Shown: one piece after another, positions 15,480 to 42,923 of the stretch
Numbering within the stretch: the stretch's first letter is position 1
Layout: each line of letters starts with the position of its first letter
Source of the DNA: Candidatus Dojkabacteria bacterium
GTDB taxonomy: Bacteria > Patescibacteriota > Dojkabacteria > J137
DNA: 64,000 nt
Direction of reading: 5' to 3'
Assembly: GCA_040006935.1 (NCBI GenBank)
Contig: JBDTVZ010000001.1
Span: 103,772-167,771 of the forward strand
Notes under the pieces: model-generated
Seen by the model: the letters and a program-made list of their open reading frames with translations, nothing else
Database searches by the model: none
What the model was told of the DNA's origin: nothing
Translations under genes and position numbers: made by a program

Positions 15480-15534
15480 TATAACTCAATAAAAGGACCG
15501 CACATACCTTGGCGTAATTTCGGTACGGTATTAA

Positions 15535-15561
15535 CTCCCCTAACTCCTCTTAAAAGAGGGG
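15535..15561. repeat. family B repeat, minus orientation (CCCCTCTTTTAAGAGGAGTTAGGGGAG)
   Basis: Hairpin CCTCTT-AAAA-GAGGGG followed by a G-rich motif, in the intergenic region after ORF 15075-15479. Confidence 0.5.
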
Positions 15562-15780
15562 AAAGAATAATAATACGAACTTTTTTCTTTCTTATTCATT
15601 TTTGCTCAAAATAATTACTCTGCTTTCTAAGTTACTATATCCATGGTATTCAAACCTGCTGCCATTTTCTAACGTAATGGAAGTATCCTATAAAAGTTCT
15701 GTTATCAATTTTAGACATTTTATAGTGTACTCACAAAAAGTTTGTGATACGATGAGATAATTATATATTAGTAGCAATCT

Positions 15781-25819: not shown

Positions 25820-27142
25820 ATGTCAGATTTAATTCCAGAATCTCAAAAAGTCTATATTAAAGACTTAGGTAAATTCGTAGACAAAGATGTTAAGTTAGAA
25901 GCTTGGGTGTATAACTCTCGATCTTCAGGAAAAATTGCATTTCTCCAATTAAGAGATGGGTCAGGTTTTACGCAAGGAATTGTAGAAAAAGCAAAAGTTG
26001 GCGATGAAATTTGGGAAAAAGCAGAAAAAGCTAGTATAGAATCATCTGTATTAATTTCTGGAAGAATTAGTAAGCATCCTAAAAAAGAAGAGTTCGAAAT
26101 CCAAGTTACAGATTTGGAAGTTATAAACTCAAGTTTCGAATACCCTATTGGAAATAAGGAACATGGTCCAGAATTTCTTTTCGAGAATAGAGATTTGTAT
26201 TTAAGATCAAAAACTCCTTGGGCAGTTTTAAGAATTAGAAATCAAGTATTTTTATCTATAACTAACTTCTTTAACGAAGAAGGATTTATCCGATTTGACA
26301 CTCCTATTCTACAAGCTACATCTGCAGAAGATACCTCTCAACTTTTTAGTATGAAGTATTACGAAGATAAAATGTATCTTACTCAATCAGGACAATTATA
26401 TGCAGAAGCTGGAATCATGGGGTTTGGAAAAGTTTACGATTTTGGACCAGTATTTAGAGCAGAAAAAAGTAAGACTAGAAACCATTTATCTGAGTTCTGG
26501 ATGATGGATGCAGAAATGGCATTTTACGAACAACAAATGAATGAGGATTTACAAGAAAGATTAGTGAAAAGAATTTTAAAAGATGCATTAGAAAACTGTA
26601 AAACAGAATTAGAAATTCTAGAAAGAAACACAGAAGTATTAAAAGCTTGTGTAGAAAAACCTTTTCAAAGAATAAAGCATTTTGCTGCTAAACAACTTTT
26701 AGAAAAAGAATATGGAATGACTGTTGATTATGCAGATGATATGACTACTGAAGAAGAAATTAAAATTGGAGATCACTTTGGAGTTCCAACATTTATAGAA
26801 GATTATCCATTCGAAGTAAAGGCTTTCTATATGAAAAGCATTATTGACGAAAGAGGAATGAAGAGAGCAAAATGTGCAGATTTAATTGCACCAGAAGAAG
26901 CGAGAGAAATTATTGGAGGAAGCCAAAGAGAAGATAGTTACGAAGTTTTATTAAACGAACTTAAACAAAGAAACTATCCTGTAGAAGAATACGAATGGTA
27001 TTTGAATGTTAGAAAGTACGGAGGAGTTCCTCACGCTGGATTTGGCATTGGATTAGAAAGAACAGTGAGATGGATTTCTGGAGTACATCATATCAGAGAA
27101 ACTATTCCGTTCCCGAGAACAACAATTTTGACACGACCATAG
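25820..27142 (+). CDS. asnS: asparagine--tRNA ligase
   Basis: 440 aa class IIb aaRS. FRAEKSKTRNHLSEFWMMDAEMAF matches the AsnRS-specific motif (cf. E. coli [21 protein letters not shown]). tRNA-Asn is immediately upstream. Confidence 0.85.
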   Translation: MSDLIPESQKVYIKDLGKFVDKDVKLEAWVYNSRSSGKIAFLQLRDGSGFTQGIVEKAKVGDEIWEKAEKASIESSVLISGRISKHPKKEEFEIQVTDLEVINSSFEYPIGNKEHGPEFLFENRDLYLRSKTPWAVLRIRNQVFLSITNFFNEEGFIRFDTPILQATSAEDTSQLFSMKYYEDKMYLTQSGQLYAEAGIMGFGKVYDFGPVFRAEKSKTRNHLSEFWMMDAEMAFYEQQMNEDLQERLVKRILKDALENCKTELEILERNTEVLKACVEKPFQRIKHFAAKQLLEKEYGMTVDYADDMTTEEEIKIGDHFGVPTFIEDYPFEVKAFYMKSIIDERGMKRAKCADLIAPEEAREIIGGSQREDSYEVLLNELKQRNYPVEEYEWYLNVRKYGGVPHAGFGIGLERTVRWISGVHHIRETIPFPRTTILTRP

Positions 27143-27212
27143 ACCTCACCCGTCTCTCACTACGTTCGAGCCACCCTCTCCATCGAGGATGGAGAGGGGC
27201 TGGGGGTGAGGT
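27142..27212. repeat. family B composite nested hairpin (ACCTCACCC ... CCCTCTCCATC-GAG-GATGGAGAGGG ... GGGGGTGAGGT)
   Basis: Outer inverted repeat ACCTCACCC / GGGTGAGGT and an inner perfect 11-bp hairpin. It starts at the asnS stop codon. Confidence 0.7.
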
Positions 27213-27231
27213 AATTATTATTAAAAATTTT

Positions 27232-28074
27232 ATGAAGATATCGATTCAAGGAAACCTCGGCTCCTATTCACACATCGCGGCCGAATCCATTTTCGGTAAA
27301 GAAATAGAATTAATCGAAAGATCCGAATTTACAGAAGTTTTTGAAGATTTAAAAACCAGCACTGCTGATTACATAGTTGTTCCAATTGAAAATTCAACTC
27401 ACGGTTCTGTTTACCAAAACTACGATAACATTAGTAAATTCGATTTCCCAATCATTGGTGAAGTGTATTTACGAATTAATTTTCATTTAATTGCTCACCC
27501 AGGAACAAATATAAAAGAGATAAAAACTCTTTATTCACATCCTGTTGGTTTAAATCAAATAAAAGAATTTTTAAAAGAAAACAAACAGATTAAAGCAATT
27601 GAATTTGATGATACTGCTGGAAGTGTGAAAATGATTAAGGAAAAAAATTTAAAAGATTCTGCCGCAGCAGCAAGTAAATTAGCAGCCCAGCTTTACGCAA
27701 TGGAAATTTTAGAAGAAAATATTCATGAAAACGAAAAAAACTTCACAAGATTTTTTGTACTTTCAAAAGATGGTAAACTTCCAAAAGAGTTAAAAGATAA
27801 TCGAAACGATAAAACATCTATTCAATTCTTGCTAGGTGATGAACCGGGTTCATTATACAAAGCTTTAAGAACTTTTGCAGATAGAGATATTGCTTTAACA
27901 AAAATTGAAAGTAGGCCAATTTTACATACAGATTGGGAATATAGATTTTATGTAGATGTAACGGCGGGAATTCAAGAAGATAAAATGAAAAATGCATTAT
28001 TTGAATTGAAAAGTTATGTAAAAGAATTTAAGATTTTGGGAAGTTATAAAAAAGGGGAATATATTGAAACTTAA
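27232..28074 (+). CDS. pheA: prephenate dehydratase
   Basis: Start moved to ATG 27232 (MKISIQGNLGSYSHIAAE) because the ORF-track N-terminal extension runs through a GC-rich repeat. PDT domain plus a C-terminal ACT domain. Confidence 0.8.
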   Translation: MKISIQGNLGSYSHIAAESIFGKEIELIERSEFTEVFEDLKTSTADYIVVPIENSTHGSVYQNYDNISKFDFPIIGEVYLRINFHLIAHPGTNIKEIKTLYSHPVGLNQIKEFLKENKQIKAIEFDDTAGSVKMIKEKNLKDSAAAASKLAAQLYAMEILEENIHENEKNFTRFFVLSKDGKLPKELKDNRNDKTSIQFLLGDEPGSLYKALRTFADRDIALTKIESRPILHTDWEYRFYVDVTAGIQEDKMKNALFELKSYVKEFKILGSYKKGEYIET

Positions 28075-38937: not shown

Positions 38938-38970
38938 AAAGACTTAGATTCCTCAAGTCTTTTTAATGGC
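38938..38970. terminator. bidirectional intrinsic terminator (AAAAAGACTT-AGATTCCTC-AAGTCTTTTT)
   Basis: Hairpin flanked by an A-run and a T-run. It lies immediately 3' of the predicted rnpB on the minus strand. Confidence 0.6.
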
Positions 38971-39366
38971 CCATTCCGTAAGCCGAATTCTGTGTTTAAA
39001 AGAATAATTTCTCTATGCCCACTATGTGGTTGCTCCAGACAGGGGTTACCAGCATCCTAATATTACTATTAGAACCGGTGGTCTCTTACACTTGTCCCGT
39101 CTTGTATTTCTACAATTCAAGACAATTCCCGAAAAACGGGAACACCATTTCACAATTCCTCTTCTTCCCCCTCTCCTGTTAAGGAGAGGGTTGGGGTGAG
39201 GTTTTTCTTTCTGTTGCCCTCTTAGCTACTCGATGAGTTAGCACCCTAAGATTACTCCCAGCCGATCTCCTTTCGGATACGCGGTGTCTTTTTTTGGAGT
39301 CCGGACTTTCCTCTTGTATATATTTCAATATTACAAATATATACAAGCTATTCTTTGGAATGGACC
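38966..39366 (-). ncRNA. rnpB: RNase P RNA (bacterial type A-like)
   Basis: On the minus strand, P1 is formed by GGUCCAUUCC (5') and GGAAUGGGCC (3'). A P3 hairpin is CUUGUAUAUAU...AUAUAUACAAG. The P4 5' strand GGAAAGUCCGGACUCC matches E. coli GGAAAGUCCGGGCUCC at 15 of 16 positions. GGGCAACAGAAAG corresponds to GUGCAACAGAGAG, and GUAAGAGACCACC to GUAAGAGCGCACC. GGUAACCCCUGUCUGGAGCAACCACAUAGUGGG corresponds to GGUAAACUCCACCCGGAGCAAGGCCAAAUAGGGG, and ACAGAAUUCGGCUUAC to ACAGAACCCGGCUUAUC. A TTATAAT -10 box lies upstream and the terminator downstream. Confidence 0.85.
39167..39202. repeat. family B repeat (CCCCTCTCCTGTTAAGGAGAGGGTTGGGGTGAGGT), located within rnpB (P12 region)
   Basis: Perfect hairpin CCTCTCC-TGTTAA-GGAGAGG followed by TTGGGGTGAGGT, preceded by ACAATTCC as in the other copies. 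Confidence 0.7.
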
Positions 39367-39386
39367 AGTGTAATTATAACATGGAA

Positions 39387-39426: not shown

Positions 39427-39460
39427 CCCTCTCCTTTTAAGGAGAGGGTTAAGGTGAGGT
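39427..39460. repeat. family B repeat (CCCTCTCCTTTTAAGGAGAGGGTTAAGGTGAGGT)
   Basis: Near-identical to 39167-39202 and also preceded by ACAATTCC. Confidence 0.7.
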
Positions 39461-40406: not shown

Positions 40407-42056
40407 TTATTTAAAAGATTTATTAAGATATTCTACAAGATCGGAGATTTTAATTCTATCTTGTTGCATTGTATCTCTATCTCGAATTGTTACTGCCTGA
40501 TCGTTTAAGGTTTCAAAATCAATTGTTACACAGTAAGGTGTTCCTACTTCATCTTGTCTTCTGTATCTTTTCCCAATTGAAGCAGTTTCATCATATTGAG
40601 TCATGTATTGTGATTTAATCATATCTTGAACTTCTAGAGCTTTTTGTTGTAATTCTGGTTTTTTAGATAAAGGTAATATTGCAACTTTGATTGGTGCTAA
40701 GGATTTTTTAAGCTTTAGTACAACTCTAGAATCTTTTTCTCCTTTGGAATTTGTTAATTCTTCTTTTGTATATGCATCTTCGAGAACCATCATTAGAATT
40801 CTATTCAACCCAACAGAGGTTTCCATAATATGAGGAACTAATCTTTCTCCAGTTTCCTGGTCAAAGTAATCTAGCTTTTCTCCAGAGAATTTTGAGTGTT
40901 GAGTTAAATCGTAATCTCCTCGATCGTGAAGTCCTTCTAATTCCTTAAATCCTCCTAAAGTTTCGTAATTATATTCAATATCAAAGGCTTGAGATGCATA
41001 GAATACTAATTTTTCGTGTTTTTTGAACCTTAATTTGTCTGGGTTAATTCCAAGTTCCTCTACATGCCATTTCATTCTAGTTTCTTTCCACATTTCAAAT
41101 AAATTTTGTTTATCTGCAGGTTTGTGAAAGTATTGCATTTCCATTTGTTCAAATTCTCTTGTTCTAAATACAAATTGACGAGCGATTATTTCGTTTCTAA
41201 ACGCTTTTCCAACTTGTGCAATTCCGAATGGTAACTTAGGCCTTAAAGTATCTCTATAATTTTTATATTCTAAATAAATTCCTTGGCAAGTTTCTCCTCT
41301 TAAATATGTAACGTTTTCTTCCGAAAAACTTGAATCTGTTGTTCCCATGTTTGATTTAACAAGAAGATTAAATGCTCTAGGTTCTGTTAAATCATTTCCT
41401 TGAGGAGACTTAATATGCAAAATTTTAATTACTTGTTCTAATTCTTTTGCCGAAGCTTTATCAAGATCAACTAATTTATTATTTGAAACTTGATTATAAA
41501 TTCTAGCGACCATCACAGGCAAAACATATTCTAAAGCATCAAGATCTTTTGTTTCCGCTTTGAAATCCTCAATGGTTAGTTCGCCACCTTGACCTTTCCT
41601 AATTAAGAAGATTGGCTCCGACCCATTAGGCCCATTATGCGATACCCATCTATTATCTAGTACTTTATATTCTTCTTGATTAACATATTCTATGAGATGT
41701 TTGACTAATGTATCGAATTCTATTTTCTCACACGCTTCTTCAACTAAATGATCAGCTCTGTATCTTGTATGTGTTTTTTTATCTTCTACTAGAACATCAT
41801 CAAATCCTCCTACGTGTCCGGATGCAACCCAAGTTTTTGGATGCATAAATATTCCAGAATCAAGCATTAAAATATCGTTTCTTTCCTGAACCATAGATTT
41901 TTCCCATGCTCTTTGGATATTATTTTTTAATAAAATTCCGTAATGTCCGTAATCGTAAACTGCAGCAAATCCTCCATAAATTTCGGAAGATGGATAAATG
42001 AATCCATTTTCTTTTGCCCAGGATTTGAACTCGTCTAGTGTTTTAAGTTTTTCCAT
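40407..42056 (-). CDS. glyQS: glycine--tRNA ligase (alpha2 homodimeric type)
   Basis: 549 aa. SSEIYGGFAAVYDYGHYGILLKNNIQRAW matches the alpha2 GlyRS N-terminus. Class II motifs and a C-terminal anticodon-binding domain are present. Confidence 0.9.
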   Translation of the reverse strand: MEKLKTLDEFKSWAKENGFIYPSSEIYGGFAAVYDYGHYGILLKNNIQRAWEKSMVQERNDILMLDSGIFMHPKTWVASGHVGGFDDVLVEDKKTHTRYRADHLVEEACEKIEFDTLVKHLIEYVNQEEYKVLDNRWVSHNGPNGSEPIFLIRKGQGGELTIEDFKAETKDLDALEYVLPVMVARIYNQVSNNKLVDLDKASAKELEQVIKILHIKSPQGNDLTEPRAFNLLVKSNMGTTDSSFSEENVTYLRGETCQGIYLEYKNYRDTLRPKLPFGIAQVGKAFRNEIIARQFVFRTREFEQMEMQYFHKPADKQNLFEMWKETRMKWHVEELGINPDKLRFKKHEKLVFYASQAFDIEYNYETLGGFKELEGLHDRGDYDLTQHSKFSGEKLDYFDQETGERLVPHIMETSVGLNRILMMVLEDAYTKEELTNSKGEKDSRVVLKLKKSLAPIKVAILPLSKKPELQQKALEVQDMIKSQYMTQYDETASIGKRYRRQDEVGTPYCVTIDFETLNDQAVTIRDRDTMQQDRIKISDLVEYLNKSFK

Positions 42057-42073
42057 ATTTTTATAATAATAAA

Positions 42074-42502
42074 TTAATAGTTAATTCCCTCCTTTATTAA
42101 AGGAGGGGTAGGGGAGGATTTAGAGCCAATCTCCTGTTTTCTGATTTCAAATTCTTTCAGCAATTTCTCTTTTATTAGTTCGATGTTACCTGTTAACTCA
42201 TGATTCCAGAACCTGATTAGCTTAATCCCTACTGATTCTAAGACAATAGTTCTATAATTATCATACTCTTCCTTTCCTTCATGAGACTCTCCATCAAGTT
42301 CTATTCCCAAAAGCAACTTATCACAATAAAAATCTAATATAAAATTATCTATTGGTTTTTGCCTCAGCCATCTATAACCTAATTTATCTCTACGTAAAAC
42401 ATAATTCCATAGTACTTGCTCTGCTTTTGTAGGTAATGATCTATTCTGCCTTGCAAAAGTTTTCAATTTCTTATCGTATGGTTTGTGATATCTATTGTTC
42501 AT
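42074..42502 (-). CDS. DUF559 (Vsr/YcjD-like) endonuclease-domain protein
   Basis: 142 aa. LPTKAEQVLWNYVLRRDKLGYRWLRQKPIDNFILDFYCDKLLLGIELDGESH...LIRFWNHEL closely matches E. coli YcjD and DUF559. The C-terminal tail is encoded by a family B repeat. Confidence 0.8.
   Translation of the reverse strand: MNNRYHKPYDKKLKTFARQNRSLPTKAEQVLWNYVLRRDKLGYRWLRQKPIDNFILDFYCDKLLLGIELDGESHEGKEEYDNYRTIVLESVGIKLIRFWNHELTGNIELIKEKLLKEFEIRKQEIGSKSSPTPPLIKEGINY
42083..42119. repeat. family B repeat, plus orientation (AATTCCCTCCTTTATTAAAGGAGGGGTAGGGGAGGAT), overlapping the 3' end of the DUF559 gene
   Basis: Hairpin CCCTCCTTTA / TAAAGGAGGG followed by a G-rich tail. Confidence 0.65.
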
Positions 42503-42507
42503 AAAAA

Positions 42508-42545
42508 ATCCCTCCCTGCCCTCCCTTTTACAAAGGGAGGGATTA
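42508..42545. repeat. family B repeat, minus orientation (revcomp AATCCCTCCCTTTGTAAAAGGGAGGGCAGGGAGGGAT), immediately upstream of the DUF559 start codon
   Basis: Inverted relative to 42083-42119. Together the two copies bracket the gene. Confidence 0.65.
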
Positions 42546-42752
42546 TAAAACTCACTACAATAACAAAAAAAGTCGTCTCAGAATAAAAATTAATTTACTC
42601 TGGGACGACTCTTTTAACAAGCTTGCCGCGGTTCCACCCATTTTTCTCGAATCCGAGACTCTTTATATTAAGTTTTATCAAAAGCATGCCATTGCTTTAC
42701 TACAGAAATTATACAATACCAATTATGGTATTGCAATTTCTGTTAGTTTAGC

Positions 42753-42923
42753 TTACATAGTTGGTGCAGCTGGAGTTGGTTCCATTGGTGCTGGCATTGT
42801 AGTATCCATCTTACATGTGCATCCTTCGCAATTGCATCCTTCAGGTGAATTCATGTGACTGCAAGCAGCACAATTCATATCTGTCGAACATTCTGCGCAT
42901 GAGCAAGTACATCCTCCTTCCAT
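42753..42923 (-). CDS. small Cys-rich metallothionein-like protein (56 aa, below the ORF-track cutoff)
   Basis: Minus-strand ORF MEGGCTCSCAECSTDMNCAACSHMNSPEGCNCEGCTCKMDTTMPAPMEPTPAAPTM. It has 13 Cys arranged as CxC and CxxC pairs, and its codon usage is GC-richer than that of its neighbours. Confidence 0.45.
   Translation of the reverse strand: MEGGCTCSCAECSTDMNCAACSHMNSPEGCNCEGCTCKMDTTMPAPMEPTPAAPTM

Follow-up and report, generated by a model that had tools for sequence, protein, structure and literature searches.

A DUF559 nuclease gene bounded by inverted triplex-motif repeats forms a discrete, probably selfish cassette in the 5′ untranslated region of glyQS in a Dojkabacteria genome

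Bacteria of many phyla carry a multi-copy repeat, described under the names BoxC, PIT and TMECO, that occurs as singlets and inverted doublets and is a motif for an intrastrand purine-motif triplex (Hoyne & Maher 2000, 2002; Holder et al. 2015, PMC4666352). Its consensus is 5′-CCCTCNCCC N3-6 GGGNGAGGG N3 GGGNGAGGG; TMECO forms a triplex in vitro as judged by circular dichroism and nuclear magnetic resonance, the motifs stall polymerases and mark unstable loci, PIT elements have neither promoter nor terminator activity, and purine-motif triplexes do not form in RNA (PMC4666352). Holder et al. reported no function for these triplex motifs (TMs), no consensus among their flanking genes and ‘never’ any mobility genes near them (PMC4666352). 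Known since the 1990s without a function, an origin or a partner, TMs have thus far been described as orphan intergenic repeats. Here we analyse 64,000 nucleotides of a Candidatus Dojkabacteria genome (contig JBDTVZ010000001.1, positions 103,772 to 167,771; hereafter the window), in which TMs of the same architecture and near-consensus sequence instead form the two ends of a 455-bp cassette (42087-42541) built around a gene for a predicted nuclease of the DUF559 family, which supplies a candidate protein partner.

Several other described systems share parts of this design. Elements of the IS200/IS605 family leave no target-site duplication (TSD), and their ends are recognised as hairpins folded in single-stranded DNA, non-canonical base triples helping in the recognition, but these ends are asymmetric, involve one strand and are served by the HUH enzyme TnpA, whereas the ends of the cassette are symmetric inverted repeats accompanied by an enzyme of a different fold. 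Rickettsia palindromic elements (RPEs) and other in-frame miniature inverted-repeat transposable elements (MITEs) show that small structured repeats are tolerated inside protein-coding genes; RPEs have no enzyme and no triplex-type mirror repeat, whereas the cassette repeats occur with or without the gene. Repetitive extragenic palindromes (REPs), their REPIN doublets and the REP-associated tyrosine transposases (RAYTs) resemble the DUF559/TM pair in that a usually single-copy gene is flanked by an inverted structured repeat that is abundant elsewhere, in having gene-less doublets and in that long vertical persistence is possible, but RAYTs are HUH/Y1 transposases and REPs are simple hairpins with a GTAG/CGTC head, in contrast to a PD-(D/E)XK nuclease and a hairpin with a mirror third strand. 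Vsr and E. coli YcjD belong to the same fold family as the window protein; Vsr is paired with the Dcm methylase and nicks T:G mismatches, whereas no methylase adjoins the window gene. The EDxHD homing endonucleases (I-Bth0305I) and free-standing homing genes likewise have a Vsr-type core, behave as selfish presence/absence genes and leave no TSD (PMC3239194). The EDxHD enzymes carry NUMOD or helix-turn-helix (HTH) modules and sit in introns or inteins (PMC3239194), whereas the DUF559 genes considered here encode ~110-140 aa, are free-standing or in frame within host genes and are bounded by structured inverted repeats.

The gene of the cassette lies on the minus strand (42074-42502) and encodes 142 aa that match Pfam DUF559 (PF04480) with E=3.1e-28 (scoring 98.2 bits where the cut-off is 20.6, and covering positions 2-108 of the 109 in the profile). 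The closest solved structure is 3HRL (‘endonuclease-like protein’, E=1.8e-17), and together these two matches already settle the Vsr-like PD-(D/E)XK fold; nuclease activity is predicted. In an alignment of 42 DUF559 homologs E68, D70, H74, R84 and R97 are invariant and the core ..IE.DG..H.. is kept, and a homology search found a fully (100%) identical protein at NCBI, encoded on a 516,739-bp contig of a Candidatus Dojkabacteria metagenome-assembled genome (MAG). Ratios of nonsynonymous to synonymous substitution (dN/dS) of 0.04-0.20 in every pair tested, in-frame copies included, place DUF559 under purifying selection. The only profile matches within the cassette are DUF559 and MTES_1575, and it holds no second open reading frame (ORF); the YcjD model was the sole NCBIfam match, below its cut-off, and a PADLOC search gave no defence-system match. 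By Pfam and the ORF list the cassette encodes no known class of transposase (DDE, HUH, serine or tyrosine recombinase, DEDD), and by Pfam it lacks any HUH/Y1 (IS200-like) protein. Pfam also detects no NUMOD or HTH DNA-binding module in the window protein, leaving the catalytic domain alone, and we found no intron or intein around the gene (Rfam gave no match).

The original prediction, made on this DNA before any database search, had placed the nuclease gene between inverted copies of a repeat, one overlapping its stop codon and encoding its C-terminal residues and the other directly 5′ of its start codon, and this arrangement was borne out. Each copy consists of a C-rich (Y) arm, a loop, a G-rich (R) arm, 2-4 nt in the case of the window cassette, and then a reversed but uncomplemented copy of the R arm, the third strand. 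The downstream (3′) terminal TM (42087-42120, plus strand) comprises the Y arm CCCTCCTTT, the loop ATT, the R arm AAAGGAGGG, the spacer GTAG and the third strand GGGAGGATT; it overlaps the 3′ end of the DUF559 gene and encodes the final ~12 residues of the protein (..PTPPLIKEGINY). The upstream (5′) terminal TM (42507-42541, minus strand) comprises, read on the gene strand, the Y arm CCCTCCCTTT, the loop GTA, the R arm AAAGGGAGGG, the spacer CA and the third strand GGGAGGGATT, which is a perfect mirror of its R arm (G to G, A to A or T). This copy stops 4 nt short of the ATG, and its third strand contains GGGAGGG, a Shine-Dalgarno-like sequence whose end is 7 nt (its span 7-13 nt) upstream of that codon. 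An inverted-repeat search paired arms at 42086-42117 and 42511-42542 (32 nt, 72% complementary), a degenerate hairpin pattern gave three matches in the 64 kb, all at the two cassette ends, against 0.01 expected from shuffles, and the hairpins fold better than shuffles (z = -2.9 to -4.6). At gathering or E-value thresholds Rfam offers no family for the repeats, and matches to snoR31, MIR4378 and CrcZ were dismissed as chance.

In the third block G is kept as G and A becomes A or T, a rule that is the code of the antiparallel purine-motif triplex (G*G:C, A*A:T, T*A:T) and identifies the repeat as the known BoxC/PIT/TMECO motif; the original prediction had recognised hairpins, which do fold, but had missed that they belong to a mirror-repeat triplex motif. 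A three-way compensatory change separates the two window copies, the downstream one having one C fewer in its Y arm and one G fewer in both its R arm and its third strand, and orthologous copies beside carB in Sphingomonadales are likewise compensatory (CCCTCCCCC/GGGGGAGGG/GGGTGGGGG versus CCCCTTCCC/GGGAAGGGG/GGGGATGGG). Among 156 non-redundant TM units from 80 DUF559 loci, 103 (66%) have a full-length perfect mirror, compared with 8.5% of non-cognate pairings of arm and third strand (p=1e-47). The spacer between R arm and third strand is exactly 3 nt in 78 of 129 good cases, and in the remaining ones it holds a small second hairpin whose structure is kept while its sequence is not. Both cassette TMs and the three solo TMs of the window have mirrors that are perfect or have one mismatch; the solo copies at 27174 and 39169 fit the published consensus (CCCTCTCC / GGAGAGGG / GGGTGAGG), compared with which the cassette TMs are an A/T-extended variant, CCCTCC(C)TTT, whose second loops measure 2 and 4 nt. 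Reading the third strand as a direct repeat scores below the mirror reading (p=8e-13), and a G-quadruplex formed from the R arm and third strand, considered with no energetic evaluation, would leave the position-specific A to A/T rule unexplained. Because the inverted ends put their G-strands on opposite strands, and because purine-motif triplexes are excluded from RNA (PMC4666352), we favour a role at the level of DNA.

The cassette interrupts a conserved arrangement upstream of the gene for glycine-tRNA ligase (glyQS, 40407-42056, minus strand), which lies directly downstream of it on the same strand. The window order is a T-box leader (42598-42749, minus strand) with its terminator/antiterminator hairpin, an inverted repeat at 42566-42615 (minus strand), then 22 nt, the 455-bp cassette and, after a further 29-31 nt, the ATG of glyQS. 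The leader is a weak Rfam T-box match (E=2e-6, with 37 bits where the gathering score is 93), and its T-box sequence AAAUGGGUGGAACCGCGG and terminator are conserved in the two closest relatives that could be retrieved, the Dojkabacteria loci L081 and L083, whose glycyl-tRNA synthetases (GlyRS) are 86-87% identical to that of the window. In both relatives a small Cys-rich ORF is followed by the T-box leader with its terminator hairpin and then, after 26-140 nt, by glyQS, and there is no DUF559 gene or TM at the locus. This comparison, which had been proposed as a check on the original prediction, reveals a presence/absence polymorphism at an otherwise conserved site; as gene and repeats are both missing from the relatives, the cassette has been inserted into the 5′ untranslated region (UTR) of glyQS, between the T-box leader and the start codon. 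A promoter-like site (42736-42708) lies upstream of the glyQS leader, and no convincing promoter was found between DUF559 and glyQS. Neither cassette TM was flagged as terminator-like and neither is followed by a T-run, the downstream hairpin leading into AATTAAC. With no convincing promoter there and no terminator-like TM, this cassette in the 5′UTR of an essential gene is probably read through, and glyQS probably co-transcribed through it.

In the window the Cys-rich ORF (42753-42923, minus strand; 56 aa, CTCSCAEC..CAAC..CNCEGCTC), kept just upstream of the glyQS leader in L081 and L083 as well, may encode a small metal-binding protein. Divergent short T-boxes of the candidate phyla radiation (CPR) may fall below the Rfam threshold, as the window leader does.

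The association between DUF559 genes and TMs extends across phyla. We collected 80 DUF559 loci from GTDB species representatives as the best tblastn hits to a query that included the TM-encoded C-terminal tail, retrieving them from a narrower DUF559 alignment as the broad one was too diverse; they represent most bacterial phyla, among them CPR, Bacteroidota, Chloroflexota, Cyanobacteria, Acidobacteriota and the Alpha-, Beta- and Gammaproteobacteria. Perfect hairpins with the C-rich arm first peak at both gene ends, ~30x above a background of ~0.02 per 100 nt: the 100 nt preceding the DUF559 match hold 0.64 per locus, and the surroundings of its end 0.38 + 0.54. Strict TMs reach 3.58/kb at the gene ends against 0.095/kb elsewhere in the same loci, a 38-fold enrichment that is as strong upstream as downstream, and 60 of 74 loci have a strict TM on at least one flank. 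For 59 of 72 loci, aligning the two flanks with each other in inverted orientation scores above the 95th percentile of shifted controls. The commonest arrangement, seen in 22-26 loci, is (hairpin-G segment)-gene-(C segment-hairpin). In many homologs the tails of the annotated ORF are translated TMs, for example N-terminal NPLPLGEGGRRPGEG... or C-terminal ...PPSLTPTLSQRERE.

A cassette lies directly 5′ of carB both in Sphingomonadales (L017, L018, L033 and L055, divergent) and in a Pasteurellaceae MAG (L066, co-directional), a shared position that could reflect a common target or coincidence.

At other DUF559 loci, as in the window, terminal inverted repeats bound a discrete unit, with cassette lengths of 415-503 bp. 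Cassettes in a member of the Paceibacteria (L069) and one of the Saccharibacteria (L074) share 82% nucleotide identity over 503 bp; the homology stops exactly at the inverted tips ACAACCGCCCCG / CGGGGCGGTTGT, beyond which the two loci have unrelated sequence. Homology between L011, where the cassette lies inside metG, and L054 is similarly confined to the cassette, and in Sphingomonadales the same cassette family occupies at least two different loci. About ten cassettes are inserted in frame inside large host genes, those for MmeI-type, type ISP and Eco57I-type restriction-modification (RM) enzymes, DUF1156, YgiQ radical-SAM and methionyl-tRNA synthetase (MetRS) proteins, and they split host Pfam domains (MmeI_Mtase, Radical_SAM_N and Type_ISP_C; a cassette also lies within MetRS). 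Plasmid carriage is rare, at 24 of 72,556 records (most of them megaplasmids or chromids), and phage carriage is limited to two records, so classical vectors do not explain the spread of this mobile unit. The likeness to an insertion sequence (IS) or MITE suggested by the original prediction thus stands as far as empty sites in relatives, the same flanking repeats across phyla and homology ending at the repeat tips are concerned, and falls short in that no TSD is seen, the enzyme is a hydrolytic nuclease and not a known transposase, and the window has a single copy.

At another locus a HemN-like radical-SAM gene contains, in frame and between two TMs, an array of ~25-aa tandem repeats (L118, 1708-2514), so TM-bounded inserts can carry content other than DUF559. 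A further locus (L068, 3415-3800) has a ~140-bp MITE-like element with outward third strands (C segment-hairpin ... hairpin-G segment) twice in tandem beside DUF559.

Most TMs are solo copies or doublets. The five TMECO doublets of E. coli all have the cassette arrangement, their third strands facing each other across 16-27 nt, and in L012 one host ORF carries both the cassette and, in frame, a gene-less doublet of this arrangement. Approached from the side of the repeat, 148 matches to the TMECO pattern in 120 metagenome loci included six (4%) within 150 nt of a DUF559 homolog, and all four DUF559 genes in these loci were TM-flanked, a numerical relation like that of REPs and REPINs to RAYTs. 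YcjD, the E. coli member of DUF559 (L085, E. coli K-12 1,351,204-1,351,760), has a decayed TM overlaid on its stop codon and a ~50-nt partial duplicate of the gene’s own 3′ end, and the intact TMECO no. 9 of Holder et al. is ~170 nt downstream. The gene is present in 3378 of 5426 complete E. coli genomes and absent from 38%, and the ycjD-negative ‘empty site’ is uninformative, as it holds an eefRABCD efflux island with no TM at its junctions. In a sample of 60 records, ycjD-positive chromosomes have 11-28 ycjD-plus-TMECO-like places and 12 of 21 ycjD-negative ones have 1-3, a correlation that is suggestive but confounded by phylogroup.

Bringing these observations together, we think it probable, though well short of certain, that the window element is a selfish mobile cassette of ~455 bp (42087-42541), inserted in the glyQS 5′UTR and transcribed with glyQS, whose DUF559 nuclease acts on triplex-forming ends. 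Each end can fold in single-stranded DNA into a hairpin with its G-rich arm covered by the mirror third strand; the nuclease would be the protein partner of TMs, binding and cutting at or beside them; and repair or recombination by the host would place copies of the cassette, or of TM singlets and doublets that lack the gene, at new sites, by a route like that of a homing endonuclease gene or of the RAYT/REPIN partnership. The anatomy of the cassette, its insertion and mobility, the association across phyla, the discrete boundaries, the mirror covariation and the purifying selection are supported directly by the data; recognition and cleavage of TMs by DUF559, and the route of mobility, are the parts that we infer.

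A number of points weigh against this account. Binding or cutting of TMs by DUF559 is argued from inference and not from biochemistry, a hydrolytic PD-(D/E)XK nuclease alone cannot carry out strand transfer, and a triplex was not detected in vivo in E. coli (PMC4666352). The 64-kb window has one DUF559 copy and no other, E. coli ycjD is single-copy at a fixed locus, and in sequence subtype the cassette TMs of the window differ from its solo TMs. The check for a TSD outside the cassette ends came back negative, and none was seen in ~24 other cassettes, L069 and L074 being among those examined. Among the 74 loci, 14 have no strict TM on either side, flipped (5-6 loci) and direct TM arrangements also exist, and the TM-encoded tail of the query may slightly inflate the downstream TM figures, not the upstream ones.

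Some of the same facts could be read differently. TMs might be landing pads only, with the palindromic (hairpin-G)(C-hairpin) doublet as the recognition site of a free-standing, homing-type DUF559 gene that inserts into existing doublets, TMs themselves arising by another route in which the gene has no role. The gene-less doublets of E. coli and L012, which have the exact cassette arrangement and short spacers, would suit such a gene, as would the lack of a TSD, the scarcity of DUF559 near most TMs and the fact that Vsr-like EDxHD enzymes are true homing endonucleases (PMC3239194). We nevertheless judge it unlikely: the empty glyQS sites of the relatives have no TM at all, so that gene and TMs arrived together, the homology between L069 and L074 takes in the whole TMs to their outer tips, and the window protein has no NUMOD or HTH module. 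A different proposal makes DUF559 a domesticated, host-beneficial Vsr-like repair nuclease for lesions or stalled forks caused by TMs, which would merely accumulate where it is present. It draws on the strong purifying selection on DUF559, on the vertical inheritance of ycjD by E. coli phylogroups A, B1 and C as a single copy at a fixed locus and a similar situation beside carB in Sphingomonadales, on the stalling of polymerases and destabilisation of loci by TMs (PMC4666352), and on the greater number of TMECO-like places in ycjD-positive E. coli than in the 12 of 21 ycjD-negative records. Since it leaves unexplained the discrete TM-tipped cassettes in unrelated contexts, the in-frame insertions into host genes and the glyQS 5′UTR insertion absent from relatives, and since the E. 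coli correlation is confounded as noted, we hold it to be quite unlikely.

The hairpins might also act in cis, by insulating or terminating transcription, as stems that stabilise mRNA, or by clamping the translation of a toxic nuclease. The Shine-Dalgarno-like third strand, with its GGGAGGG ending 7 nt before the ATG, can be sequestered, a G segment just before the start codon recurs in other CPR loci, and the 5′ G segment is complementary to the 3′ C segment. Transcriptional insulation, which the original prediction had offered as its alternative, fares poorly: neither TM has a T-tract after it or was flagged as a terminator, PIT elements show no promoter or terminator activity (PMC4666352), and termination inside a cassette that separates the T-box leader of glyQS from its start codon would shut off an essential gene. 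Mirror covariation is moreover unexplained by Watson-Crick RNA hairpins, and purine-motif triplexes are barred from RNA (PMC4666352). TMs are found, too, as solo copies and in frame within ORFs; a cis-regulatory role as the explanation of the hairpins therefore seems to us very unlikely. Milman et al. list DUF559, in a table only, among inverted-repeat ‘inversion targets’, with a 14-fold enrichment among predicted programmed inversions (PMC9881135), which would be expected if the repeats drove an inversion switch of the DUF559 segment. The window arms are only ~35 nt long and 72% complementary, the window ORF list has no invertase nearby, and neither empty sites nor cassette-limited homology would be explained, which makes such a switch extremely improbable; the published enrichment can be put down to the flanking inverted repeats themselves.

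Returning to the reading of the element as a selfish cassette, a broader version of it, which we put forward tentatively and regard as possible with the balance somewhat against it, is that DUF559 proteins including YcjD are dedicated BoxC/PIT/TMECO enzymes, structure-specific for the intramolecular purine-motif triplex, and that with TMs they make up an unrecognised, domain-wide class of mobile elements comprising autonomous ~0.45-kb cassettes and non-autonomous singlets and doublets. We place the cassette among repeat-associated nuclease or homing-type elements, with a substantial chance that it represents a new element class. In the literature on DUF559, ycjD, intrastrand triplexes, I-Bth0305I and boxC/REP/RAYT we found no paper linking DUF559 to TMs, each of which is known separately. 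DUF559 is among the most widespread nuclease families of ‘unknown function’, and the link turns this puzzle and that of the TMs into one testable hypothesis, for which E. coli itself, with ycjD and ~20 TMECOs, is usable as a test system. It also accounts for several oddities of annotation, namely the PLPLGEGxGVR and SPxPSP tails that DUF559 ORFs carry, the ‘domain insertions’ seen in RM enzymes, MetRS and radical-SAM proteins, and the presence of DUF559 among predicted inversion targets. If the broader version is true, intramolecular triplex DNA would for the first time have a defined biological role in bacteria; and if the nuclease does recognise triplex-folded DNA, this would be a new principle by which mobile elements have their ends recognised and a possible source of structure-specific DNA tools.

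Further copies of the repeat lie elsewhere in the window, in keeping with the repeat family of the original prediction. An intergenic solo TM at 27144-27211 (CCTCACCC..CCCTCTCC-loop-GGAGAGGG..GGGTGAGG) has third strands on both sides, making a triplex possible on either strand, and is enclosed as a whole by an outer CCTCACCC/GGGTGAGG stem, its DNA fold having z = -5.1; a listed ORF (27070-28074) crosses this copy, its actual start probably being an ATG at ~27231. The RNase P RNA gene (38963-39367, minus strand; 405 nt, 101.8 bits against a gathering score of 100) contains a solo TM at the tip of P12 (39169-39202, plus strand; CCUCACCCC-AA-CCCUCUCC-UUAA-CAGGAGAGGG), which looks like a repeat insertion into a structural RNA gene. 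Another solo TM, in the same orientation and with one third-strand mismatch, lies directly 5′ of that gene (39427-39460, plus strand; CCCTCTCCT-TTTA-AGGAGAGGG-..-AGGTGAGGT), and a degenerate copy with an imperfect hairpin at ~15530-15570 (CTCCCCTAACTCCTCTTAAAAGAGGGG) folds no better than shuffles.

Within glyQS itself, residues 112-195 of GlyRS form an ~84-aa insertion where the closest ortholog has 4 residues; the bordering segments are 87% and 95% identical to that ortholog, and the DNA of the insertion has no TM. In L081 the spacer between T-box and glyQS (330-465) holds two small hairpins, CCATGGTGAGGTTCTCGAACCATG and TCATCCTTCGAGAGCCTCAGGATGA, of a different repeat type.

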